From NCBI GenBank assembly GCA_937896905.1, contig CALBOE010000002.1:56954-120953 (forward strand): 64,000 nucleotides of DNA. The letters are read 5' to 3'. This DNA is from an uncultured Clostridia bacterium. GTDB lineage: Bacteria; Bacillota; Clostridia; Christensenellales; UBA1242. Positions 2,062 to 34,500 of the stretch are shown one piece after another; the first letter of the stretch is position 1; every line of letters starts with the position of its first letter. The notes beneath the pieces are model-generated. The model was not told the DNA's origin and made no database searches. It saw nothing but the letters and a program-made list of their open reading frames with translations. The translations under genes were made by a program, and so were the position numbers.

Positions 2062-3295
2062 TGTTGTAACACTTGGTTGCAAAGTTAATGAATATGAAAG
2101 CCAATCTATTATGGCGCAACTAAAAGAAGAAGGGTATGAAATTTTTGAAGGATTAGTTCCGGCAGATGTCTATGTTGTTAACACCTGTGCTGTAACTAAC
2201 ACTGGGGAGAAAAAATCTCGCCAAATGCTTGCAAAAATAGAAAAACTAAACCCAAACGCAAAAATTGTTGTTGTTGGTTGTGCTGTTCAAAACAACCCTG
2301 CAAAATTTTTAACAAACAAAAATGTTATTGCATTAGCGGGTAACTATGGTAAGCACGATATTATTAATTTTATAAACAAACAAAACAAAGTTTTGCCTGA
2401 ACTGGAACATAATAAGTTTATTAACATGAAAAAGCCAATAGAAACCAGAACCAGGCAATACGTAAAAATTCAAGATGGTTGTAACTATTTTTGCACCTAT
2501 TGTTTAATTCCATATTTAAGGGGAAGAAGCCGAAGCAGAGATATGGCCGACATTTTGCAAGAAATTAAGAGTATGCAAGCAAATGAAATTGTTTTAACTG
2601 GCATTAATATGAGCGACTATCGCATTAATGGCGAGCTTGCCTTAAAAACTCTTGTTGAAGAAATTGATAAATTAAACAAAAGGTTTAGAATTTCTTCCAT
2701 AGAATGTAATGTTTTAACCGAAGAAATGTTAACAACACTTAAAAACTGTAAAAACTTTTGCCCACACTTTCATTTAAGTTTGCAGTCGGCCTGCGACGAA
2801 ACCTTAAAGCGTATGAATAGGCGTTATTCAATAGAGCAATTTAAACAAGTGGTTAAAAATATTAAAAAGATATTCCCAAATGCGTTTATTGCAACTGACG
2901 TAATTGTTGGCTTTAAAGGCGAAACCGACCAAGAGTTTGAAACAACTTTTAACAACCTAAAAGAAATAGGGTTCGATTTTATGCACATATTTCCATACAG
3001 TGAAAGGGCAGGAACCGTGGCGGAAAAATTGGGCGGAGATGTTAAAAAAGAAGTTGTTAAAAAGCGAGAAGAAAAATTAATAGAACTAAATAAGTTAAAC
3101 ATTAAAAAGTGCTATAACAAGAATTTAAACACAATGCACGCAGTGTTAATTGAAGAAGCTAATGAAAAAATGAGTTATGGCTACACAGAAAACTATATTT
3201 ACACGCAAATAAAAGGGAATTATCAGGTTGGCGAAGTTGTGAAAGTTAAACTAAAAGATGTTTGCCAAAATGGTATGATTGGGGAGGTTATTTAA
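2051..3295 (+). CDS. mtaB: tRNA t6A37 methylthiotransferase MtaB (radical SAM)
   Basis: N-terminal TLGCKVNEYES. Radical-SAM CNYFCTYCLIP. C-terminal TRAM-like region. Confidence 0.85.
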   Translation: MKASVVTLGCKVNEYESQSIMAQLKEEGYEIFEGLVPADVYVVNTCAVTNTGEKKSRQMLAKIEKLNPNAKIVVVGCAVQNNPAKFLTNKNVIALAGNYGKHDIINFINKQNKVLPELEHNKFINMKKPIETRTRQYVKIQDGCNYFCTYCLIPYLRGRSRSRDMADILQEIKSMQANEIVLTGINMSDYRINGELALKTLVEEIDKLNKRFRISSIECNVLTEEMLTTLKNCKNFCPHFHLSLQSACDETLKRMNRRYSIEQFKQVVKNIKKIFPNAFIATDVIVGFKGETDQEFETTFNNLKEIGFDFMHIFPYSERAGTVAEKLGGDVKKEVVKKREEKLIELNKLNIKKCYNKNLNTMHAVLIEEANEKMSYGYTENYIYTQIKGNYQVGEVVKVKLKDVCQNGMIGEVI

Positions 3296-3630
3296 TGGAA
3301 GATTGCGTATTTTGCAAAATTAGAAGAGGAGAAATTCCAAGCACAACGTTGTATAAAGACGACGACTTTATGATTATTAAGGATATTAATCCTCAGGCGA
3401 AAGTTCATTTGGTGGCAATTCCAACAGAGCACGTGCCACATATTGATATGTTAACAGAAGAGGGTGCGGCGTTGTTGGGTAAGATTATGAGCAAAATTTC
3501 CCATATGCAAATCGAACTTGGCTTATTAAATGGATACCGCCTTTTAATTAATCAGGGCAAAGATGCTGGGCAAACTGTTCACCATTTGCACATTCACATT
3601 TTGGGCGGCGAAAAACTTAAGGAGTTTTAA
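3295..3630 (+). CDS. HIT-family nucleotide hydrolase/transferase
   Basis: Histidine triad HHLHIHILGG. Start trimmed to the ATG overlapping the mtaB stop (taATG), with GGGGAGG RBS at 3281-3287. Confidence 0.85.
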   Translation: MEDCVFCKIRRGEIPSTTLYKDDDFMIIKDINPQAKVHLVAIPTEHVPHIDMLTEEGAALLGKIMSKISHMQIELGLLNGYRLLINQGKDAGQTVHHLHIHILGGEKLKEF

Positions 3631-8520: not shown

Positions 8521-11500
8521 ATGATTACTTTTAAAGAAATTGAAATGATTGGGTTTAAATCGTTTGCCGATTCCACAAAAATTAGTTTTGATGGGGGCAT
8601 AACGGCTATAGTTGGGCCTAACGGGTGTGGGAAGTCGAATGTAAGCGACGCTATTCGTTGGGTTTTAGGTGAACAATCAAGCAAGGCGTTGCGTGGTAAA
8701 AGCATGCAGGACGTTATTTTTGCCGGAAGTGAAAAACGTAAAAAACTTAGTTATTGCGAAGTTTCCCTTGTGTTTGATAACAGCCAAAAGTGGTTTAACA
8801 TAGAGTACGACGAGGTTGTTTTAACCCGTAAATTATACAGAAGTGGCGAAAGCGATTATATGATTAATCGCAAACCTTGCCGATTGAAAGATATTAGAGA
8901 TATTTTGTACGATAGCGGCATTGGTAAAGACGGTTATTCTATTATTGGGCAAGGCAGGGTGGAAGAAATTATTCAATCTAAGCCGGAAGAACGCCGTGCC
9001 ATTTTTGAAGAAGCGGCAGGAATTGCAAAATATAAAGCCCGCAAAACCGAAACCGAAAATCGCCTTGCACGTGTTAGGGATAATTTAGAGTTGTTTGGCG
9101 TAAAAATGTCTGAAGTTGAACGCAGGTTAGGGCCATTAAAACGTCAAAGTGAAGACGCTAAAAAATATTTAGAATATAGGGATATTTTAAAACAACTTGA
9201 AATTAATGCCTATATTTATCAATTTGAACACGCAGCACAAACCAAACAAGATATTAACGTTAAATTGCAAGGATATAACGACAATTTAAGAATTTTAACC
9301 ACCAGTTTGGAAGCCGAGCAGGCAAAGTATGATAAATCTTTAAACGAAATCAATCAGTTAGATAAAAAATCCAACGAACTACACGAAAAGGTTTTAACGT
9401 CAACCATTGCTTTGGAAAAACAACAGAGCGATAGCCGTCTTTTAAGCCAACAAACTCAGCATTTGAAAGAACAAATGGACAGAATTGCCGACCAATTAAA
9501 TGCAAGCACAATGGATTTAAATCAGCGCACTGCATTTATAAACTCTGCAAAGGCGGTTCATGCAGAAGAAACTGCCAATTTAAATGCTTTGTATAGCCAA
9601 ATGCAAGAGGCAACAGCTCAGTACCTAGCATTAATAGACGAAATAACAAAAAGCGAGGGTGAAAAAGAAGAAAATCACCGTGCTATAATTGATAATTTAT
9701 CTAAGCTCACCGACATAAAATCTAACCTTTCTGCATATATGGCAAAACGCGACACTTTGCAAGAAAACATTCACACAGATCAAGAAAAATTGCAACAACT
9801 AACAGCGGAAAAGGGTAAGTTAGATGCAACAATATTAGACCTTGAAAATGAAGTTGCCTTGCTGAATAAAGGCATGGTTGAAAAGCAAAATAGTTGTGCA
9901 AGCTTAACAAAACAAGTGAAAGAATTAACCGAAACAGTTGAAAAACTTAACACTCAAATTTATGCAACAAAAACAAGTTTAAGTAACGATATAAACAGAA
10001 AAAATATTCTATCTAACTTGCAAGCAGATTTTGAAGGATATCAATTTGCGGTTAAACGTCTGCTTCAAGACGGCAAAACAAACTCCACACTTAACAGTGC
10101 AATTAAAGGCGTTGTTGGAAATATAATTTCGGTTGAAAGCAAATTCCAAACAGCAATAGAAATAGCTTTAGGTGGCAGTATTCAAAACATTGTTACCAAA
10201 GACGAAAACGATGCAAAAACCCTAATAAATTACCTTAAAGATAAGCATATGGGGCGTGCAACATTCTTGCCAATTAGTGCAGTTAAACCAAGAAGCATAA
10301 GTGCGGCAGATAGGCTATATCTTAATGCATCAGGGTGCTTAGGTGTTGCTAATAATTTGGTTAAGACCGAACCTCAATTTAAACCTGTTATTGATAGTTT
10401 GTTAGGCAGCACTGTGGTTTGTGATACGCTTGATAATGCAGTTGCACTTGCAAGAAAAAGCGGATTTGCGTTTAAAATTGTAACGCTAGAAGGTGATGTG
10501 CTTTCTCCACAAGGAAGTATGTCGGGCGGAAGCAAGAAAAGCAATGATAGTTCACTGCTTTCTAAGGAAAACGAAATTAAGGCTTTAACTAAAACCATTG
10601 AAGAAAAGTCACGAGAGATTGCAACGCTTTCTGCAAAACTTTCACAGGCAAGCAACAACCTTGCAAATGCTAAACAGGCATTAGAAAAAGAAAATGTAGA
10701 ACTTCAAATAATAAGCAACAACTATTATTCTGCAAACAGCAGGTTAGATGGTTTCAAATTAACTGACGAACAGTTTAATCAAGAAATTTTTGCATTGAAT
10801 AGTCAACTTTATATTGCCAAAAATATTGTTAAAGAGTTGGAAGAAAAAATTAATTCTATTGACCAACTTGAATTAGACTTTAACTCTTCGCAAGTTAAGG
10901 CAGACGAATACACAGCAAGCACCAAATCTGCTTATGAAGAGCTTAAACAAAAAAGAGATAAGCACCAGGAAATTTTAACGGCATCTAAGGTTAAAATTGC
11001 TTCAACCGAAGAAAAAATTAGAGCATTAAATAAGGATATTGAAACCTATTCGCAAGAAATTGAAACACTAAAAGCGTCTATTGAAAAATTAACAGCAGAA
11101 TATGAAAGCCAGCAAAAAGTGTATAGCCAAGCAATGCAAATTAATAAGGAAAAAGCGCAGCACGACAAATCTACCGATTTAGTTGCAGAACTGCACGACC
11201 TTAACACAAAAATTGCTCAGTTCGACGAATTTAAGCAAACTTTGATGAGGGAGTTAAAAGATACTGACGACAAAAAGCAAGAAATAACCAATGAAATTTC
11301 TCGTTTAAACAATAAAATATATCAGGAAGAAACAAAACTTCAAAAGGTTGATATTGATATTGAAAATATGCAAGAACGCATATATGAAGAGTATGAGTTA
11401 ACTTATAACGATTGCTTACCATTCAAAGACCAAGACGAAAACTTCGACATTAAAGAAACCCTAATTAAAATAAGCAGAACTAAGGGGCAAATAACTTCAT

Positions 11501-13593: not shown

Positions 13594-14940
13594 ATGGCAT
13601 TTTTTAGCAACCTAAGCGAACGACTAAACCACATTTTTAGCAAAATGACAAAGCGCGGGAAGTTAACCGCTTTAGAAATTAAAGAAGCAATGAGGGAAAT
13701 TCGAATTGCGCTTTTAGAGGCAGACGTTAACTATTCTGTTGCAAAAAACTTCATTAATAAAGTTAGCGAACTTGCAGTTGGTGAAGAAATTTTAAAAAGT
13801 TTAACCCCAACACAACAAGTTATTAAAATTGTTAGGGACGAATTAACTGCTTTAATGGGTGGGGAAAATCAAAAACTAATTGTTAGCCCAAAACCACCAA
13901 CAGTAATTATGATGTGTGGCTTGCAAGGTAGTGGTAAAACAACCATGTGCGGGAAGTTGGCACTTAAACTGAAAAAGGAAGGTAAGAAACCACTTTTAGT
14001 TGCGTGCGACATCTACCGCCCAGCGGCAATAGACCAACTTAAAGTGCTTGGAAAATCAATTAATATAGATGTGTTTGAACGAGGCTCGCAGGCACCAACC
14101 AAAACTGTTAAAGAAGCGGTTGCTTATGCCGAAAAGTTTGCGCTAGATACAGTTATTATAGACACCGCTGGACGACTTCAAATAGACGAAAAACTAATGG
14201 AAGAACTTAAAGATGTTAAAAAGGTTATTAATCCAACCGAAATTCTGTTAGTTATAGATGCCATGATTGGGCAGGAAGCCGTGGCAGTTTCCACCGCCTT
14301 TAACGACGCCCTTGACGTTACAGGTGTTGTGTTAACCAAAACAGATGGTGACACTCGTGGCGGTGCGGCACTTTCAATTCGTTCTGTTATTGGCAAGCCA
14401 ATTAAATTTGTTGGCGTTGGCGAAAAGTTAACCGACCTTGAACCATTCTATCCGGACCGTATGGCGTCTAGAATTTTAGGCATGGGAGACGTTTTAACTC
14501 TTATAGACAAAGCGCAAGAAGCGGTAGACGAAAAAATGGCAAAAGAAATGGAACGAAAATTCCGTGAAAACAGTTTCGACCTTAACGACTATATTGAACA
14601 ACTTAATTCTCTCAAAAAAATGGGCGGGCTTAAATCTGTTTTAGGAATGTTGCCAGGCATCGGTGGCAAACTTAAACAAATAGAGGATCAAATAGACGAA
14701 AAACAGTTAGAAAAAAATAAAGCCATAATTCAAAGTATGACGGCAAAAGAAAGGGCAAACCCCGATATTATTAACGGAAGTCGCAGGGCAAGAATTGCAA
14801 AAGGCAGTGGCACGCAAGTTAGCGATGTTAACCAACTTCTAAAACAATTTAATCAATCCAAAGAAATGATGCGTATGATGAAAAACCCAAAAGCACATGG
14901 CGGAAAGATGGCAATGATACGCAAACTTATGGGTGGCTAA
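13594..14940 (+). CDS. ffh: Signal recognition particle protein Ffh
   Basis: GLQGSGKTT, DTAGRL, TKTDGDTRGGAALS and a Met-rich M domain. Confidence 0.95.
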   Translation: MAFFSNLSERLNHIFSKMTKRGKLTALEIKEAMREIRIALLEADVNYSVAKNFINKVSELAVGEEILKSLTPTQQVIKIVRDELTALMGGENQKLIVSPKPPTVIMMCGLQGSGKTTMCGKLALKLKKEGKKPLLVACDIYRPAAIDQLKVLGKSINIDVFERGSQAPTKTVKEAVAYAEKFALDTVIIDTAGRLQIDEKLMEELKDVKKVINPTEILLVIDAMIGQEAVAVSTAFNDALDVTGVVLTKTDGDTRGGAALSIRSVIGKPIKFVGVGEKLTDLEPFYPDRMASRILGMGDVLTLIDKAQEAVDEKMAKEMERKFRENSFDLNDYIEQLNSLKKMGGLKSVLGMLPGIGGKLKQIEDQIDEKQLEKNKAIIQSMTAKERANPDIINGSRRARIAKGSGTQVSDVNQLLKQFNQSKEMMRMMKNPKAHGGKMAMIRKLMGG

Positions 14941-14997
14941 CGCCAATGGGCGTTTGGCAAAAGCTTCATCATACAAATAGCGGACACGCTATGAGCC

Positions 14998-15061
14998 GAT
15001 GAAAAACCCAAAAGCACAAGGCGGCAAGATGGCAATGATACGCAAACTTATGGGTGGCTAG
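14998..15061 (+). repeat. Ghost direct copy of the last 20 codons plus stop of ffh
   Basis: 61/64 identical to 14877-14940, offset 121 nt. All 3 differences are at third codon positions. Confidence 0.9.
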
Positions 15062-15171: not shown

Positions 15172-15540
15172 ATGGAATTTGAAACGAGATACATAGTTTG
15201 GTTTTATGTAGATAATGGCAATTTGCTTTTGCCCGTGGTAATAATCCCTGTATCAACAAAAAGAACAGTTGTTGTAAATTTAAATAACTCTAAAAGGTTT
15301 GTGATTGATGCAAATAAAATGGAAATTATACAAGAGTTAAAAGAAAGAATAAAAAGACAATGCAATGTTGAAACAATAAACTGTGATTACACCATCACAA
15401 TGTTAAGACGATTTGGAAATTTGCTACCTGAAGAAAAGGATTTATTGTTTAAAAGCAGTTTTAGTGCACAAGAAATAAAAATGTTAAAAACCCGTTTTGG
15501 ACAAAATATAAAAAACAACGAGCAGACAAATAACTTTTAA
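15172..15540 (+). CDS. Hypothetical protein (122 aa)
   Basis: AGGAGA RBS at 15161-15166 and its own promoter. No recognisable family. Weakly similar to the next ORF. Confidence 0.6.
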   Translation: MEFETRYIVWFYVDNGNLLLPVVIIPVSTKRTVVVNLNNSKRFVIDANKMEIIQELKERIKRQCNVETINCDYTITMLRRFGNLLPEEKDLLFKSSFSAQEIKMLKTRFGQNIKNNEQTNNF

Positions 15541-15549
15541 GGAGGGATT

Positions 15550-16029
15550 ATGTTAAAAAAATTACTGGTTAAAAAAATTTCAAAAGCTGATTTTGGCGAA
15601 AATAACCAAGTGGACTTATCTAAATTATTTTGGGTTTATGCAAAAGATGGTAATTTTATTAAACCAATATTTTTTGCAGATGGCTTATCTTTAATAATAC
15701 CAACCGACAAATTTGCAGCAGAAGTTGGAACCAGCAGCGCAAAAACCCCACCAAACGCAAAGAACCTTCAAACCCTTTTAAGTATTGTTAAAGAACAATA
15801 CAATTTGCAAGAATTGCCAAGGTTGGGCACCACACAAGTTATGATAAATAACCTATCTAAGGGGTTGTCTCACGAATTGGTGCGAGAAGTTAAACAAAAA
15901 TTGCAACAAGTTGAATTGGGGAAATGTAGCACAATAACAACAGAAGAGTTGCAACAAATTAGTAAAATCTTTTCAAAAAATCTAAAAAATGTAAGCACAT
16001 TGAACAAGGTTGAAGCATTTTCCGTTTAG
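15550..16029 (+). CDS. Hypothetical protein (159 aa), possible paralog of the preceding ORF
   Basis: AAGGAGGG RBS. Shared blocks with the upstream ORF: LFWVYAKDGNFIKP vs YIVWFYVDNGNLLLP, and ELQQISKIFSKNLKN vs EIKMLKTRFGQNIKN. Confidence 0.6.
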   Translation: MLKKLLVKKISKADFGENNQVDLSKLFWVYAKDGNFIKPIFFADGLSLIIPTDKFAAEVGTSSAKTPPNAKNLQTLLSIVKEQYNLQELPRLGTTQVMINNLSKGLSHELVREVKQKLQQVELGKCSTITTEELQQISKIFSKNLKNVSTLNKVEAFSV

Positions 16030-16781: not shown

Positions 16782-17279
16782 ATGGAAAATTTATTAGAAG
16801 TTGGAAAAGTTGCTCGCCCACATGGAGTTAGAGGTGCAGTTAAAGTTTTGTGCTATATTGAAATCGGTTTGAATAATATTAAACAAGTTTATGTTGGCAG
16901 CAAACTAACGGCATATAATGTTAAGCAAGTTCAGGCATTGAATAATGATGCTTTCATTTTAACGTTAAAAGAAATTGCCACAGTTGAACAGGCGGACAAA
17001 CTAAGAAATTTATCTGTTTACATTAAAAGAGATGAAACAGAAGAGTTTAAAGATAAATTATATTTAAGCGATTTGTTAGGTAAGCAAGTGATTAACGAGA
17101 AAGGCGAAAAGTTGGGCGAGTTGGTAGATTATGAGGATTATGGTGCCAGCGTTATACTAACCATTCGCTGTGGGGTTGTTTCTTATTCCATTCCTTATGT
17201 TGATGGAATTATTGATTACAGTGAACAAGCAGATGCGTTTGTTATTAATGAACAAACATTTAAGGATATGCGCGTATGA
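16782..17279 (+). CDS. rimM: 16S rRNA processing protein RimM
   Basis: VGKVARPHGVRGAVKV N-terminus and a PRC-barrel C-terminus. rimM-trmD overlap. Confidence 0.9.
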   Translation: MENLLEVGKVARPHGVRGAVKVLCYIEIGLNNIKQVYVGSKLTAYNVKQVQALNNDAFILTLKEIATVEQADKLRNLSVYIKRDETEEFKDKLYLSDLLGKQVINEKGEKLGELVDYEDYGASVILTIRCGVVSYSIPYVDGIIDYSEQADAFVINEQTFKDMRV

Positions 17280-17944
17280 GAATAGACATTTTAACCCTTT
17301 TTCCAGAAATGTTTGCGCCACTTAAAGAAAGCATAATAAAAAGAGCAACAGAAGATGGTAAAATTGAAATTAACATAATAAACATAAGAGATTATGCCAA
17401 CCCACCACACTTTAAATGTGACGACGAACCTTTTGGTGGCGGTGCGGGAATGGTTATGCTTTGCGAGCCACTTTTTAAAGCAATAGAAGCAATGCAAACA
17501 GACGAATGCCAAATTTATTATATGAGCCCAAGAGGAGTGGTGTTTAACCAGGGAATAGCAAAACAGTTAAGCCAACAAACTCATATAATTTTAATTTGCG
17601 GGCATTACGAGGGAATAGACCAACGTGTTATAGATTATTTTAACATTAAAGAACTTTCTATTGGCGATTATGTTTTAACAGGTGGCGAACTTCCAGCAAT
17701 GGTGGTGGCGGATAGTGTAATTCGTTTGCTTCCTGGGGTTATAAGGGCAGAAAGCACAGCAGAAGAAAGTTTTTCCAATAACCTTTTGGAATATAATCAA
17801 TACACTCGCCCAAGCAATTTCCGTGGGCTTGTTGTGCCAGAAGTTTTATTAAGCGGAAATCATAAAAAAATTGCAGAATTTCGCGCACAACAATCGCTGG
17901 AAATAACACAAAAAAATCGCCCAGATTTATTGAATAAGCACTAA
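17276..17944 (+). CDS. trmD: tRNA (guanine37-N1)-methyltransferase TrmD
   Basis: MRIDILTLFPEMF, GGGAGMVM, CGHYEGIDQRV and LTGGELPAMV. Confidence 0.95.
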   Translation: MRIDILTLFPEMFAPLKESIIKRATEDGKIEINIINIRDYANPPHFKCDDEPFGGGAGMVMLCEPLFKAIEAMQTDECQIYYMSPRGVVFNQGIAKQLSQQTHIILICGHYEGIDQRVIDYFNIKELSIGDYVLTGGELPAMVVADSVIRLLPGVIRAESTAEESFSNNLLEYNQYTRPSNFRGLVVPEVLLSGNHKKIAEFRAQQSLEITQKNRPDLLNKH

Positions 17945-17984
17945 TTTTTGTGCTAGAATATTAAAGATTAAAAGAGAGTGAGTT

Positions 17985-18818
17985 ATGATAAATTGGTTCC
18001 CGGGGCATATGAACAAAACCTTAAAACAAATGCAAAATGATAGCAAGCTTTGCGATTGTTTTGTGTATGTGGTAGATGCTAGATGTCCACAAAGTTGCAT
18101 AAATCCAGAATTTATTAGGGTTATTAAAGGTAAACCTATAATTTTTGTGTTAAGCAAGGCAGATTTGGTGCAAAAAACCGACATTATTAAAGCCAAAGAG
18201 CATTTTATTAACCAAGGGCACAGCTGTGTGGAACTTAACGCCACAATAAGTGGAAGTGCAAAAGTTATAACTGCCGAAATTAAAAAGATTTTTGCTGTAC
18301 GCCTAAAACAAAATGCCGAAAAGCAAGTTAACTTTATAACTCGTGCAATGGTGTTGGGAGTTCCAAATTCTGGCAAAAGCACCATAGTAAATAACTTGTG
18401 TGGAAGTGGTAGGGCAGTAACAGGCAATAAGGCAGGCGTAACTAGAAGTAAACAGTGGATTAAAGTTGATGGCAACATAGAGTTTATGGACACACCTGGT
18501 GTGCTTCTTCCTAACTTTGAAAAGGACGAAACCGCATACAACCTTGCATTTGTTGGCAGTGTTAAAGACGACATTTTGCCGTTGCCTGAAGTTGCTTGCG
18601 AATTAATAGGAAGATTGAACAGCATTAATGGCGACATTTTGAAATCTAAATATGGTGTTGATAGTGCAAATTACACACACAATGTTGAAATTTTGGAAGC
18701 AATTGGTAAAAAGCGTGGTTGTATGATTAAAGGTGGCGAAATAGATTACGAGCGTGCTGCAAAAATTCTGTTAACCGAATTTCGTGCAGGTAAACTTGGG
18801 AAGATTTGCCTAGAGTAG
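17985..18818 (+). CDS. rbgA: Ribosome biogenesis GTPase A (YlqF/RbgA, circularly permuted)
   Basis: WFPGHMNK, permuted G motifs (LSKADL ... GVPNSGKST ... DTPG). Confidence 0.9.
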   Translation: MINWFPGHMNKTLKQMQNDSKLCDCFVYVVDARCPQSCINPEFIRVIKGKPIIFVLSKADLVQKTDIIKAKEHFINQGHSCVELNATISGSAKVITAEIKKIFAVRLKQNAEKQVNFITRAMVLGVPNSGKSTIVNNLCGSGRAVTGNKAGVTRSKQWIKVDGNIEFMDTPGVLLPNFEKDETAYNLAFVGSVKDDILPLPEVACELIGRLNSINGDILKSKYGVDSANYTHNVEILEAIGKKRGCMIKGGEIDYERAAKILLTEFRAGKLGKICLE

Positions 18819-18822
18819 GCTT

Positions 18823-19004
18823 GAAGAATTACCATTCGCTTAACGCTTCGCTAATCCGCTCAGGTAAACACTTCTCGCCTTTAGGATGGAGGTTCTATTA
18901 TCAATGGTGAGCTCAAAGAATTACCATTCGCTTAACGCTAACATTAATCCGCCTGAACCAATCAACCCTGCCTTTAAATGTCATTCTGAATGAGCGAAGC
19001 GAGT
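18823..19004 (+). repeat. Degenerate tandem repeat, period about 92 nt (2 units plus a partial third from 19005)
   Basis: AAGAATTACCATTCGCTTAACGCT at 18824 and 18916 (24/24; the preceding base differs, G vs A). Further shared blocks TAATCCGC and GCCTTTA. Third start GAAGAATC at 19005. Confidence 0.8.
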
Positions 19005-19043
19005 GAAGAATCTAAAAGATGTTTCGCTTCGCTCAACATGACA
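18979..19043. repeat. Imperfect palindrome / REP-like hairpin
   Basis: GAGCGAAGCGA (18992-19002) pairs with TCGCTTCGCTC (19024-19034). Outer stem TGTCAT/ATGACA. No T-tract follows. Confidence 0.8.
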
Positions 19044-19089
19044 CAAAAGAACGTGATATGTGTGCGGTGAAAGACCTAAAAGGAAAAAT

Positions 19090-19740
19090 ATGATAGACAC
19101 TTTAAAAACTTTTGAACACGATAAACAACTGCTAACCGAAAACATAACAACCATTGCAGGCATAGACGAGGTTGGGCGTGGCCCACTTGCGGGCCCGGTG
19201 GTTACGGCTTGTGTTATAATGCCCTACAGCGAAATGCTAAACGGAGTTTATGATAGTAAAAAGGTAACAAAAAAGAATAGAGATAAATTATACAACGAAA
19301 TTCTAAACAAAGCAATTAGCGTTTCCATTGCCATTAAAAACGAACAAGTTATTGACGAAATTAACATATTAAACGCAACCAAAGAAGCAATGAAGGAGTG
19401 TTATTTAAACAGCAAAATAAAGCCTGATTTGTTGCTTGTTGATGCTGTTAAACTAGATATTGCACCAAACGAAAAAGCAATTATTAAAGGAGATGCAACA
19501 AGCTACGCTATTGCGTGCGCATCTATTGTTGCAAAGGTTTATAGGGACAAATTAATGGAAGAATATGCTTTAACCTATCCGCAGTACGACTTTGAAAACA
19601 ATGTTGGCTATGGCACAAAAAAACATATAGAAGCCATTAAACAATTTGGAATAACACCAATTCACAGGCTAAGTTTTTTAAAAAACATAATAGGGGAAGA
19701 ACAGTGCAAAAAAATACATTTGGAAAGGCAGGCGAAATAA
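19090..19740 (+). CDS. rnhB: Ribonuclease HII
   Basis: Start trimmed to MIDTLKTF. IAGIDEVGRGPLAGPVV and DSKK motifs. Confidence 0.9.
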   Translation: MIDTLKTFEHDKQLLTENITTIAGIDEVGRGPLAGPVVTACVIMPYSEMLNGVYDSKKVTKKNRDKLYNEILNKAISVSIAIKNEQVIDEINILNATKEAMKECYLNSKIKPDLLLVDAVKLDIAPNEKAIIKGDATSYAIACASIVAKVYRDKLMEEYALTYPQYDFENNVGYGTKKHIEAIKQFGITPIHRLSFLKNIIGEEQCKKIHLERQAK

Positions 19741-20051
19741 TTGCGTGCAACTATCTTAAACAAAAGGGTTACAAAATAATTGGCACAAATGTTAAAAACC
19801 TAATTGGAGAAATAGACATTATTGCAAAGGATAATAAAACCCTTATTTTTGTGGAGGTTAAAACTAGGGCAAGCAATGCGTTTGGAAGTCCACTTGAAGC
19901 CATAGACCAACGAAAACAGCACAAAATTAGACAGGTTGCAACAATGTGGCAAAAACAACACAAACAACTAGAAGCACCCAGCAGATTTGACGCCATTTCA
20001 ATTGTTGGATTTGAAGAACCAGAAATAACGCATATTATTGATGCATTTTAA
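19704..20051 (+). CDS. yraN: UPF0102 YraN-family endonuclease-like protein
   Basis: GTG start overlapping the rnhB end. GKAGEIIACNYLKQKGYKII..GEIDIIAK....FVEVKTR matches the YraN pattern. Confidence 0.8.
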   Translation: MQKNTFGKAGEIIACNYLKQKGYKIIGTNVKNLIGEIDIIAKDNKTLIFVEVKTRASNAFGSPLEAIDQRKQHKIRQVATMWQKQHKQLEAPSRFDAISIVGFEEPEITHIIDAF

Positions 20052-20079
20052 AAAATTACATCTTTTTTCATAAAAATAC

Positions 20080-20108
20080 TTGCAAATATATTAATTGTGT
20101 GTTATATT
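20080..20108 (+). promoter_or_regulatory. SigA-type promoter of rplS
   Basis: TTGCAA, 17 bp containing TGt, TATATT (20103-20108). Confidence 0.65.
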
Positions 20109-20111
20109 GTA

Positions 20112-20165
20112 AAAGTTGTCAGCGGTCCGCTACGGTCCAACGCAAGAACGCTGAATTAGGAGGTA
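20112..20165 (+). promoter_or_regulatory. Structured rplS 5' leader (possible L19 autoregulatory leader)
   Basis: CAGCG...CGCTG stem enclosing GGTCCGCTACGGTCC, directly before the AGGAGG RBS. An L19 leader element is known in low-GC Gram-positives. I cannot verify the assignment by covariance here. Confidence 0.35.
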
Positions 20166-20168
20166 AGT

Positions 20169-20510
20169 ATGAATATTATCGACCAAATCGAGAAAGAACA
20201 ATTACGCAACGACCTTGCTCCTTTCAATGTTGGAGATACTGTAAGAGTGTCAGTTAAGGTCAAAGAAGGCGACAAGGAACGTATCCAAGCCTACGAAGGT
20301 GTTGTAATTGCAAAAAAAGGTGCAGGCGTTAGAGAAACCTTCACCGTTCGCCGTGTTTCGTTTGGCATTGGCGTTGAAAGAACATTCCCAATGAACAGCC
20401 CAAGAATTGATAAAATTGTTGTGGTTCGTAAGGGTAAAGTTCGTAGAGCAAAAATTTATTATGTTCGCAATCTTTCTGGTAAAGCCGCTAAAATCAAAGA
20501 AGACCGTTAG
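20169..20510 (+). CDS. rplS: 50S ribosomal protein L19
   Basis: [33 protein letters not shown] matches the L19 family. Confidence 0.95.
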
Positions 20511-20520
20511 GTCTTTTTTT
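20497..20520 (+). terminator. Intrinsic terminator overlapping the rplS stop (module A)
   Basis: AAGAC-cgttag-GTCTT followed by a T-run. Confidence 0.7.
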
Positions 20521-20581
20521 AGAGGATAGAACGGAAAGTTGCGAAACTCCTGCTAAGTAATTCTAATTACAGCAGATGTTA

Positions 20582-20635
20582 AATCTTTCTGGTAAAGCCG
20601 CTAAAATCAAAGAAGACCGTTAGGTCTTTTTTTAG
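20582..20635 (+). repeat. Exact 54-nt copy of the rplS 3' end plus terminator (module B)
   Basis: 54/54 identical to 20469-20522, offset 113 nt. Confidence 0.9.
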
Positions 20636-20652
20636 GCTTTACCCATGCAAAT

Positions 20653-20702
20653 GCTAAAGCCGCTAAAATTAAAGAAGACAGATAGTGTCTTCTTTTTTAG
20701 GC
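20653..20702 (+). repeat. Diverged copy of the rplS 3' end plus terminator (module C)
   Basis: Reads [10 protein letters not shown]-stop with ATC>ATT and CGT>AGA. Its own compensated hairpin GAAGACA-gatag-TGTCTTC followed by T6. Confidence 0.85.
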
Positions 20703-20735
20703 AGTCACTCGTCGAACATATGTTTGATAAATTAA

Positions 20736-20764
20736 TTGACAAATTTTTCTAATTGGTGTAGTAT
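20736..20764 (+). promoter_or_regulatory. SigA-type promoter of comM
   Basis: TTGACA, 17 bp, TAGTAT. Confidence 0.55.
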
Positions 20765-20776
20765 GAGGGAAAGAAG

Positions 20777-22315
20777 GTGCGTATGTTAGCAAAAATTTTA
20801 TCTTTTGGTTTAAATGGAATTTCGGGATACCCTGTTCAAATTGAGTTGGATATTAACTCTGGTTTGCCAGCTTATGATGTGGTTGGGCTTGCCGACACTG
20901 CCATTAAGGAAAGTAAATCTCGTGTTAAGGCTGCAATTAAAAACAGTGCCTTTAACTACCCAATTAACAAAATTATAGTCAATCTTGCTCCGGCAGACAC
21001 TAAAAAAGAAGGTAGTATGTACGACCTTCCTATTGCGCTTGCCATTTTAACCGCTCAGATGGACATTCCGCACCAAGCAATTAAAGATTATGTTGTGTTG
21101 GGCGAATTAAGTTTAGATGGCGAAATTAGAAAACTTAATGGTATTATGCCAATGTTAATTTCTGCCAAACAGTTGGGTTATAAAAAATTTATAATCCCAA
21201 AACACAATGCTGCTGAAGCAGGGTTTATTGATGGCATTGAAGTTTATGCAATGGAAAGTTTAAAACAAGCAGTTAAATTTTTAAAAGGCGAAGAAACAGT
21301 TGAAAAAGTTAATTGTAAAACCTATGAATCCGCTTTCAAAAAGCATAATTACAAGCACGATTTTGCCTATGTTCGTGGGCAAGCAAGTGCAAAAAGGGCA
21401 ATGGAAATTGCAGCGGCAGGCGGGCATAACATTTTACTTATTGGCCCACCTGGGGCGGGAAAAACAATGATGGCTAAGTGTTTTCCTTCAATATTACCAA
21501 ATTTAACGTTTGAAGAAAGCTTAGAAGTTACCAAAATTCATAGTGTGGCAGGAGTTTTGGATAGTTCAACAGGCATAGTTATTGAAAGACCATTTAGAAC
21601 CCCTCACCACACAGCAACATTAATCGCTTTAACGGGTGGCGGAAACAAAGCAAAACCGGGAGAAATTAGTTTGGCGCACAATGGTGTTTTGTTTTTAGAC
21701 GAAATGCCAGAATATGCAAGAACCACCATAGAAACCTTGCGTCAACCAATGGAAGATGGATACATAACTGTTTCAAGGAATGCTTTAACGGTGCAATATC
21801 CTGCAAATTTTGTTTTAGTGGCAAGTATGAACCCGTGCCCATGCGGTTATTACGGAAGCACCACAAAAGAGTGTAAGTGCAGCCCCAACGCAATTCATAA
21901 CTACCTTTCTAAAATAAGCGGGCCATTGCTAGATAGAATTGATTTGCACATTGAAGTTGATAGCATTAGTTATGACGACCTAACAGAAACGAGGTTGGAA
22001 GAGCCAAGTTCGGAAATTAAAAAGCGAGTTGATAAAGCAAGGCAACTGCAACTTGAAAGATTTAAAGATGGCAAAATTTATTCCAACAGCAAAATGGGAG
22101 AAAGGGAATTTAAACAGCATTGCACATTAAATAAAGATTGCACAGATTTGTTAGAATATGCGTTTAAAAAATTAAACCTTTCCGCAAGGGGATATAATCG
22201 CATTTTGAAAGTTGCCAGAACTATTGCGGATCTTGATGGTAAAGAAAACATAGAAAAACAACACATATTGGAAGCTATTCAATATCGTTCGTTAGATAAA
22301 AAGTATTCGGTGTGA
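20777..22315 (+). CDS. comM: Mg-chelatase-like AAA+ protein ComM/YifB
   Basis: GTG start (an ATG at 20783 is also possible). Lon-like N-terminus, GPPGAGKTMMA Walker A, VLFLDEMPE Walker B. Confidence 0.9.
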   Translation: MRMLAKILSFGLNGISGYPVQIELDINSGLPAYDVVGLADTAIKESKSRVKAAIKNSAFNYPINKIIVNLAPADTKKEGSMYDLPIALAILTAQMDIPHQAIKDYVVLGELSLDGEIRKLNGIMPMLISAKQLGYKKFIIPKHNAAEAGFIDGIEVYAMESLKQAVKFLKGEETVEKVNCKTYESAFKKHNYKHDFAYVRGQASAKRAMEIAAAGGHNILLIGPPGAGKTMMAKCFPSILPNLTFEESLEVTKIHSVAGVLDSSTGIVIERPFRTPHHTATLIALTGGGNKAKPGEISLAHNGVLFLDEMPEYARTTIETLRQPMEDGYITVSRNALTVQYPANFVLVASMNPCPCGYYGSTTKECKCSPNAIHNYLSKISGPLLDRIDLHIEVDSISYDDLTETRLEEPSSEIKKRVDKARQLQLERFKDGKIYSNSKMGEREFKQHCTLNKDCTDLLEYAFKKLNLSARGYNRILKVARTIADLDGKENIEKQHILEAIQYRSLDKKYSV

Positions 22316-33758: not shown

Positions 33759-34418
33759 ATGAATATTACAGCAAAAGATGTTGCTAATTTAAGAGATCTT
33801 ACCGGTGCAGGTATGATGGACTGCAAAAAAGCTCTTGTTGAAGCAGACGGAAACGTAAACAAAGCAGTTGAAATTTTACGTGAAAGAGGAATTGCTAAAG
33901 CTGCTAAAAAAGAAGGCAGAATTGCAGCAGAAGGTTTTGTAGATAGTTACGTTCACGGTGGTGGAAGTTTTGCTTCTTTGGTTGAATTTAACACCGAAAC
34001 CGACTTTGCAGCAAAGAACGAAGAACTACGTGAATTTGCTCATAACGTTGCAATGCAAGTTGTTGCATCTCGTCCAATTTGTGTAAGTATTGAAGAATTG
34101 CCACAAGATGTTGTTGCAAAAGAAAGAGAAATCAATCGTGCTCAACTTCTTAACGAAGGTAAGCCAGAAGCAATGGTAGACCGCATTGTTGAAGGCAAAA
34201 TGAACAAATATTATGAAGAAGTTGTTTTGCTAGAACAAACATATATTAAAGACCCAGATGGCAAAAAGAAAGTTAAAGACGTTTTAACTGCTCTTATTGC
34301 AAAAATTGGTGAGAAAATTACAATTCGCCGTTTCCACCTTATGGTTATGGGCGAAGGTTTAACAAAACGTAATGACGATTTCGCAGCAGAAGTTGCAGCG
34401 CAATCCCAAATGAAGTAG
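33759..34418 (+). CDS. tsf: Elongation factor Ts (short form)
   Basis: [19 protein letters not shown]-like N-terminus. Confidence 0.95.
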
Positions 34419-34460
34419 AAGTTAAAAAACTTTGCAAGAAACCTCGAACTTGTTGAGAGC

Positions 34461-34500
34461 TTTCGCAGCCGAAGTTGCAGCACAATCTCAAATGAAATAA
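34461..34500 (+). repeat. Ghost copy of the last 12 codons plus stop of tsf
   Basis: 35/40 identical to 34379-34418. All 5 differences are synonymous third-position changes (including TAG>TAA). Confidence 0.9.

Follow-up and report, generated by a model that had tools for sequence, protein, structure and literature searches.

Arrays of silent gene-end copies behind rplS, ffh and tsf in a gut Clostridia bacterium and its relatives

The window analysed here, a stretch of 64,000 nucleotides from a gut Christensenellales-like Clostridia clade, is occupied throughout by housekeeping genes: pcrA, ligA, smc, ftsY, ffh, rpsP-rimM-trmD, rbgA, rnhB, rplS, comM and dprA, and further topA, hslUV, rpsB-tsf-frr, nusA-infB, the spoIIIA operon, xseA and mutS. 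No tRNA gene is found in it. In most bacteria rplS is adjacent to trmD; here it is set apart from trmD, after rbgA-rnhB-yraN (17276-20510), with its own promoter region and directly 5' of comM. The order rbgA-rnhB-yraN-rplS-comM is common to the relatives L004, L005, L008, L162 and L166 (the loci compared are designated by L numbers). Directly after the rbgA stop codon, a 29-nt non-coding repeat that is not a gene tail, GCTYRAAGAATTACCATTCGCTTAACGCT, occurs in two copies (18819-18939; 93%, 92 nt apart), and is followed by an inverted repeat, GAGCGAAGCGA/TCGCTTCGCTC. On the other side of rplS, just 5' of the predicted comM promoter (TTGACA-17-TAGTAT, 20736-20764), stands a palindrome resembling a LexA (Cheo) box, CGAACATATGTTTG, at 20713-20726. 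As this LexA-like box is kept in L163, L166, L004, L005 and L008, SOS control of comM-dprA is suggested.

The rplS coding sequence (ribosomal protein L19; 20169-20510, plus strand; PF01245, with a 100% self match and relatives up to 93%) ends with a TAG stop codon (20508-20510) that is located inside the loop and 3' arm of its terminator. The last 14 codons and this terminator make up module A (20469-20522, plus strand), the stem of which joins 20500-20505 to 20510-20515, with a T-run to 20520. An earlier note on this DNA had proposed that the gene end and its terminator occur three times in tandem, and all three modules could be located in the assembled sequence. Module B (20582-20635, plus strand) is a silent copy of A, terminator included, and is exact over 54 of 54 positions as had been claimed; the 59-nt spacer between them, I1 (20523-20581, plus strand), contains the hairpin that had been pointed out (CTGCT..GTAATT-ct-AATTAC..AGCAG, 20550-20575, plus strand), which we recovered at -8.0 kcal/mol (z -3.6) and which stops 6 nt short of module B. 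After a second spacer, I2, comes module C (about 20653-20702, plus strand), also silent, which aligns with module A at 69% over its full length. Its coding part, said to be still intact despite divergence, reads AAA GCC GCT AAA ATT AAA GAA GAC AGA TAG at 20656-20685, that is, KAAKIKEDR-stop with the expected ATT and AGA codons. It is followed by an ancestral-type terminator, GAAGACA-GATAG-TGTCTTC and then a T-run, the compensated stem of which (GAAGACA/TGTCTTC, vs AAGACC/GGTCTT in A and B) agrees with the description given earlier; the reading of the sequence thus bears out that C keeps both the peptide and the hairpin. A 24-nt core of the module, AAAGCCGCTAAAATYAAAGAAGAC, has three occurrences in the window with up to 3 mismatches, vs 0.00 expected over 100 shuffles, and 0 matches were returned by an exact scan of metagenomes.

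According to RNA folding, each of the modules A, B and C has the hairpin and U-tract of a predicted intrinsic (Rho-independent) terminator. The three hairpins have the same computed stability, -11.4 kcal/mol, matching that of the live rplS terminators of the relatives L166 and L163 (-11.0 and -11.5 kcal/mol), and a T-run is present in all three; the stem arms of module C are at 20671-20680 and 20686-20695. Modules A and B are, in addition, each enclosed by an outer stem of their own. Around A, TTCGCAATCTTTC (20463-20475) pairs with an inverted arm in I1, GAAAGTTGCGAA (20534-20545, plus strand), for a fold of -33.1 kcal/mol (z -5.9). Around B, GGTAAAGCC (20591-20599) pairs with a second inverted arm, GGCTTTACC (20635-20643, plus strand), over an exact 9 bp that 6 of 5000 shuffles reach, for a fold of -24.2 kcal/mol. 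The z-scores of these outer stems are about -5 to -6, and that of the entire array region is -5.9. Rfam gave nothing credible in the region, at gathering or at permissive thresholds. The best reading of these three equally stable predicted terminators, placed in series between rplS and the LexA-box promoter of comM-dprA, is that they are a by-product of the array.

When every ORF tail of the window was aligned to its own downstream region, ffh and tsf were found as well. Like rplS, they are highly expressed translation genes that close a transcription unit. At ffh (gene 13594-14940, plus strand), the live tail, formed by the last 21 codons (14877-14940), opens an array that extends over 14877-15061; its silent cassette (14998-15061) differs by 2 mismatches plus TAA>TAG, and the 57-nt spacer contains a hairpin and an inverted arm, TTCATCATAC. 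At tsf (gene 33759-34418, plus strand), the array (34380-34500) consists of a live tail of 12 codons (34380-34418) that is found again at 34462-34500 after 43 nt, with 5 nucleotide differences, all of them synonymous or stop-to-stop. It looks like a plain tandem duplication, without inverted arm. The true tsf terminator comes after the second copy and, more generally, the internal copies of ffh and tsf are without terminator, the last copy alone having one. Stop-codon read-through or ribosomal hopping was discarded as an explanation of the copies, since they are out of frame (offsets of 113, 121 and 82 nt), and so was their translation as mini-ORFs, given that in-frame ATGs are inconsistent and a Shine-Dalgarno sequence is missing. 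Pfam returned nothing above threshold for the small ORFs next to the arrays, in the window and in relatives. Two ORFs of 122 and 159 aa without Pfam match (15172-16029) separate the ffh array from rpsP; other cargo ORFs occupy this interval in L001, L002, L007 and L010, so that it behaves as a variable islet between conserved genes.

Comparable arrays are found in relatives, which are labelled Ca. Onthoplasma or "Christensenella sp.". The earlier note had advised aligning the regions downstream of rplS in related genomes, and this alignment revealed arrays with two or three modules depending on the strain. In a second species, the L19 protein of which is 93% identical to that of the window, the rplS tail and terminator are arranged in 107-nt units, with two modules in L163 and L172, three in L162 and at least three in L165, from different samples and assemblers; the extra modules of L162 and L163 carry an in-frame stop. 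At ffh, there are three cassettes in L003 and L010, and two in L006 and in L162/L163; L001, L002, L007 and L008 have no ffh array, and an ordinary terminator instead. At tsf, L173/L174 have two units and L175 has four cassettes, with different unit boundaries. Also 3' of tsf (about 3160-3300), a terminator-containing unit, gttgatattaatggaaacttttgagtttttgctcagaagtttttt, is present twice in L176 and once in L177-L180, all of one species. As background, 5519 ORFs were scanned across 162 sequences, and comparable tail duplications outside the clade were seen only in L069 and L031, in unrelated Clostridia genes: a membrane-protein tail in the former (16790-17050, minus strand; copies of at least 89 nt, possibly about 115, with a gap of about 40-60 nt) and the tail of a 192-aa ORF in the latter (9650-9820). 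A metagenome scan based on Ffh, which returned distant relatives only (up to 69% identity), also served as background. No arrays were seen at some 18 neighbouring genes across about 10 species, and the same three genes were hit repeatedly. By mean amino acid identity over twelve genes, the L166 species is the closest to the window (80.5%), and L162/L163 are at about 74%, like the rest; the idea that the L162/L163 species is the sister was dropped on these identities. The rplS leader of the window (20099-20168), which has no match in Rfam (no L19 leader, for example), is closer to that of L163 than to that of L166, hinting at mosaic ancestry. A homology between the L163 rplS spacer and I1 was also considered and rejected, the similarity not being significant (p=0.24), and the rplS arrays of the two species may therefore be independent events.

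Could the array be produced by the assembly? The earlier note had cautioned that a 54-nt exact repeat equals k-1 for k=55, and a de Bruijn loop at such a node could have created A-spacer-B from a genome with a single A-type module. The exact length and perfect identity of the A/B repeat speak for this, as does the presence of the window's L19 on one contig only in the collection: exact-protein look-ups with L19, YraN, RnhB and RbgA found no second contig of the source species, ComM being the sole protein that gave one. However, a graph loop needs real junction k-mers, from A to the spacer and from the spacer to A. Module C is not identical to A, and the ffh and tsf copies are non-identical, so that they cannot be de Bruijn loops. 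In other species, assemblies made with IDBA, SPAdes, MEGAHIT and CLC-type programs show the same architecture, with two or three modules depending on the strain. Moreover, a Logan contig from an independent run (L081, SRR32406220) matches 20606-20782 with one SNP and reproduces the junction B(3')-I2-C-comM in the source species. Its first base lies 30 nt, exactly k-1 for k=31, ahead of the end of repeat B. A unitig must end at this point if the module has two right-hand continuations, and such a start in an independent sample fits a repeated module. This position is only suggestive, and contig-end arguments are soft, as Logan contigs also end at times near single-copy rplS terminators (L170). 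The repeats are thus neither absent from independent data nor confined to exact k-1 repeats. We consider an assembly artefact very unlikely, the least probable of the readings discussed here; the caution is largely lifted by the sibling arrays, the other assemblies and L081, and it stands for the number of [I1+B] units, which is given as assembled.

The spacers have a particular anatomy. In the ffh arrays and in both rplS spacers of the window, the sequence from, or just after, the stop codon repeats the 5' part of the cassette before it in reverse complement. The first ffh spacer of L010 thus opens with TAAGCTTTTGGATT, the reverse complement of AATCCAAAAGCTTA at 14 of 14 positions, and in the second ffh spacer of L003, 29 nt repeat the start of cassette 2 in inverted orientation. 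In the window, the ffh arm TTCATCATAC is the reverse complement of GTATGATGAA, the rplS I2 arm that of its partner in module B (9/9), and the I1 arm approximates that of TTCGCAA(T)CTTTC (20463-20475, at the left edge of A). Shuffling gave p values of at most 0.014 for all seven ffh spacers, 0.026 and 0.014 for I1 and I2 of the window, 0.006-0.010 for the two identical tsf spacers of L175, and 0.11-0.16, hence weakly significant, for the rplS spacers of L162/L163; the tsf spacers of the window and of L173 have no inverted arm (p 0.3-0.4) and correspond to plain tandem duplications. The mean score of inverted matches was 19.7, vs 12.5 in a control reversed but not complemented. At ffh, the arm is present in the four genomes with arrays, out of four, and in none of the four without (p 0.44-0.76), so it belongs to the rearrangement and is not an ancestral feature of the 3'UTR. 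A shared mobile "TCATCAT" element, suspected in the ffh spacers, turned out to be the reverse complement of the ATGATGA of the tail. The recognisable inverted copy covers 9-30 nt of each spacer, and spacers end in a small hairpin a few nucleotides ahead of the next cassette. The rest of I1, hairpin included, has no source in the window, perhaps because it has diverged or arose differently, and no other copy of I1, or of the other spacers, was found in the window or in loci L001-L080.

We then compare silent and live copies over the rplS, ffh and tsf arrays. They differ by 33 synonymous and 4 non-synonymous changes, when the synonymous share is expected to be about 20% at random and about 33% if the silent copy alone drifts (P<=2e-8 even against 45%). 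Silent copies therefore do not appear to decay neutrally. Three scenarios, which are non-exclusive, could generate this pattern: homologous recombination could bring conspecific alleles into the live gene; the array could undergo internal gene conversion, with selection on the live copy; or it could turn over, deletions promoting silent cassettes and duplications rebuilding it. Only at ffh do the tails differ in peptide, with an F type (...KFAVMKKLM.GQF) and a Q type (...KMAMIKKLMGQ). In L003, an F-spacer-Q segment is silent behind a live Q-type tail, and the F cassette is the live end in L162/L163; between the live F cassette of L162/L163 and the silent one of L003, five codons differ, four of them synonymously.

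The history of module C can be examined in the same way. That it was once a functional rplS end, as had been proposed, is upheld by its Arg codon, stem and loop, which match the live tails of L166 and L181 (...GAAGACAGATAATGTCTTC). In these two loci the tail is single and of the C type (...AAA GTT AAA GAA GAC AGA TAA TGTCTTC TTTTTTT), and stems of the GAAGACA type are also present in the distant relatives L001, L003 and L005, which makes C the ancestral tail type. The suggestion that it came from a different allele or lineage is not supported: C shares with A and B the lineage-specific Ile codon (ATT/ATC), at an L19 site where Ile is specific to the window and 119 other close L19 proteins have Val, as well as the Ala codon GCT, which is GCA in the relatives whose DNA was read (L166 and L163). 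The two halves of C thus differ: the 5' half has the window-specific states common to A and B, and the 3' half those of the ancestral tail. Judging from these states, C appears to be the older tail of its own lineage, not a foreign one, and A and B would be the derived form. In the most parsimonious history, C would have been the live end, a duplication would have given B-I2-C, the live copy would have changed (AGA>CGT, TAG, and a stem pair from A-U to C-G), and A-I1-B would have come later, by a new event or by conversion, with A=B. Measured against the closest relative, silent C has departed less than the live tail, an oddity if the copies had simply diverged in place. The changes clustered in the live terminator give it a likeness to the tail of L163 (CGTTAGG), and import of an allele is one possible source of them; no recombination breakpoint was resolved inside rplS.

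Taken together, these observations lead us to favour, as the probable reading, a local tandem array of tail cassettes that would have originated by template switching and would remain dynamic through recombination. Each cassette is composed of the last rplS codons and the terminator overlapping the stop codon. A replication error at the terminator hairpin would start the duplication: the nascent strand would leave its template after the stop codon, copy a stretch of the tail in reverse complement, turn at a hairpin and re-enter upstream, yielding a direct-inverted-direct duplication of the tail, a layout which is what replication template switching produces. A terminator hairpin over the stop codon of a heavily transcribed gene seems to us a plausible site for stalling and switching. 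At rplS at least two events would be needed, a first one giving B-I2-C and silencing the original tail C, and a later one giving A-I1-B. With the stop codon inside the duplicated unit, the gene is left whole; such duplications being tolerated, survivors would sit at gene ends. The array would then behave as a minisatellite, with unequal exchange altering copy number and deletion between copies able to turn a silent cassette into the live gene end, while gene conversion and/or allelic recombination would keep the silent copies gene-like. The template-switch origin, the order of events, the conversion and any benefit from the terminators are all inferred. The direct-inverted-direct order is found at rplS and ffh, and is missing at tsf in the window and in L173. 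Two further observations do not fit easily. The identity of A and B suggests a young event, yet for most of I1 the window holds no match, and gene conversion is invoked to account for this; and recurrence at the same three genes is not what purely random error would predict and calls for a hot-spot or a selective explanation. Given the tsf and L163 spacers, plain tandem duplication may be the more general process.

Alternatively, duplications could be retained chiefly for a function of the RNA, with long 3' stems and terminators in tandem insulating downstream operons or stabilising abundant mRNAs. The three terminators at -11.4 kcal/mol ahead of the LexA-box promoter of comM-dprA, the outer stems at -33 and -24 kcal/mol (z about -5 to -6, and -5.9 for the whole region), and the high expression of three genes that each end a transcription unit are in line with this proposal. 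It does not explain why the internal ffh and tsf copies lack a terminator, nor why divergence is specifically synonymous, as a constraint on RNA structure is not codon-aware, and a single terminator suffices in most relatives; we regard it as unlikely, although it is the least unlikely of the alternatives. Selection could also act on the cassettes as a reservoir, silent tails serving as donors to switch the C-terminal tail or terminator, perhaps to escape the targeting of gene ends. An expression site is indeed accompanied by partial copies that have no promoter, species differ in whether a given cassette is silent or live, the silent copies are kept coding-like (33:4 in favour of synonymous changes), and arrays recur at the same three genes. 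Yet most cassettes encode the peptide of the live tail, so that switching changes nothing, the extra rplS modules of L162/L163 have an in-frame stop, a dedicated recombinase is absent, and the synonymous bias would also arise from mere homologous recombination between the live gene and incoming conspecific alleles, which makes a selected reservoir rather improbable. The same low probability is given to the stronger proposal that the arrays at ffh, rplS and tsf are inherited stores of silent gene ends, from which cassettes are actively moved into the live position, as a housekeeping analogue of pilS/vls or of Rhs orphans. Were it true, the arrays might have been selected because conserved gene ends are hot targets (for nucleases, collisions or integrating elements), a spare tail with its terminator allowing repair or switching with no loss of the gene.

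Another scenario is that of integration scars: elements inserted at gene 3' ends would have brought replacement tails, and their decay would have left attL/attR-like repeats. In its favour, integration at the end of a gene classically leaves direct repeats of the gene's 3' end; relatives carry variable cargo ORFs between ffh and rpsP and between rplS and comM; and ffh tails of the divergent F and Q types are found together in arrays. Nevertheless, the spacers begin with inverted copies of the adjacent tail and not with foreign DNA; integrase, transposase and RT are absent from the 64 kb, and the cargo ORFs have no recombinase domain; no occupied site, in the form of a large element bounded by tail repeats, exists among 181 loci; and a scan of viral contigs for the Ffh-tail pattern gave 0 matches. 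Furthermore, arrays grow by duplication of whole units (L162 vs L163), and module C has lineage-specific states. We therefore tend to set this scenario aside as improbable, slightly more so than the reservoir. Diversity-generating retroelements (VR/TR) were rejected, in the light of the missing RT and of mismatches that are of all types at third codon positions and not adenine-specific, and so were readings as integron attC, as dif/Xer sites or as CRISPR-like repeats.

The favoured array of tail cassettes can be compared with known systems. Tandem inversion duplications have reportedly been described in Salmonella (Kugelberg/Roth). Related rearrangements are covered by the four-point model of short template switches (Loytynoja & Goldman 2017, PMC5453318), by the inverted triplications of ODIRA (PMC11790251), and by the finding that template switches create perfect hairpins (PMC8794818). 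The arrays have in common with such rearrangements the direct-inverted-direct order, a reverse-complemented piece of adjacent sequence, hairpins at the turnarounds, no need for a recombinase, and remodelling by deletion or unequal exchange. They differ by their size, about 100 nt and not kilobases, with an inverted remnant of 9-30 nt, and by the fact that they recur at specific gene ends, persist across species and stay coding-like, tsf being moreover without inversion. Displaced 3' gene fragments are said, from the work of K. P. Williams, to lie at integration sites of islands and prophages (tRNA, tmRNA and protein-gene 3' ends). As in that case, gene-end copies follow each other 3' of an intact gene, the oldest farthest, whereas here no element, integrase or foreign DNA separates them, the spacers are tail-derived, and whole units duplicate in tandem. 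In silent-cassette systems such as Neisseria pilE/pilS and Borrelia vlsE (PMC2632889, PMC11499132), as in Rhs/CdiA orphan arrays, one expressed copy is flanked by promoterless partial copies, and a cassette can become the expressed end, as with the F and Q types of ffh. The arrays present such an expression site with promoterless copies, and diversified protein segments are absent from them: the genes concerned encode cytoplasmic housekeeping proteins, nearly all variation is synonymous, and no sign of diversifying selection or of dedicated machinery is seen. Finally, the three hairpin-plus-U-tract units after a strongly expressed gene recall tandem intrinsic terminators, except that each predicted unit also holds the last 10-14 codons and the stop.

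A literature search found no paper on arrays of silent gene-tail copies at housekeeping genes. By analogy, the array would be a small-scale counterpart of template-switch or tandem duplication arrays that evolve in concert. In practice, a repeat of suspect "k-1" length at a universal marker gene is here very probably real biology, and this matters for the quality control of MAGs, as several short-read contigs break exactly at arrays (L081, L164). For the biology of this clade, the arrays point to natural, recurrent and species-spanning direct-inverted-direct rearrangements of about 100 nt in bacteria, and offer material for the study of template switching, of concerted evolution at a micro-scale, and of the turnover of terminators and of C-terminal tails of essential genes. 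Silent tails that vary only synonymously and swap with the live end across species form an unusual and testable pattern and, if the arrays are selected, they would represent a new way to protect or insulate the ends of highly expressed genes.
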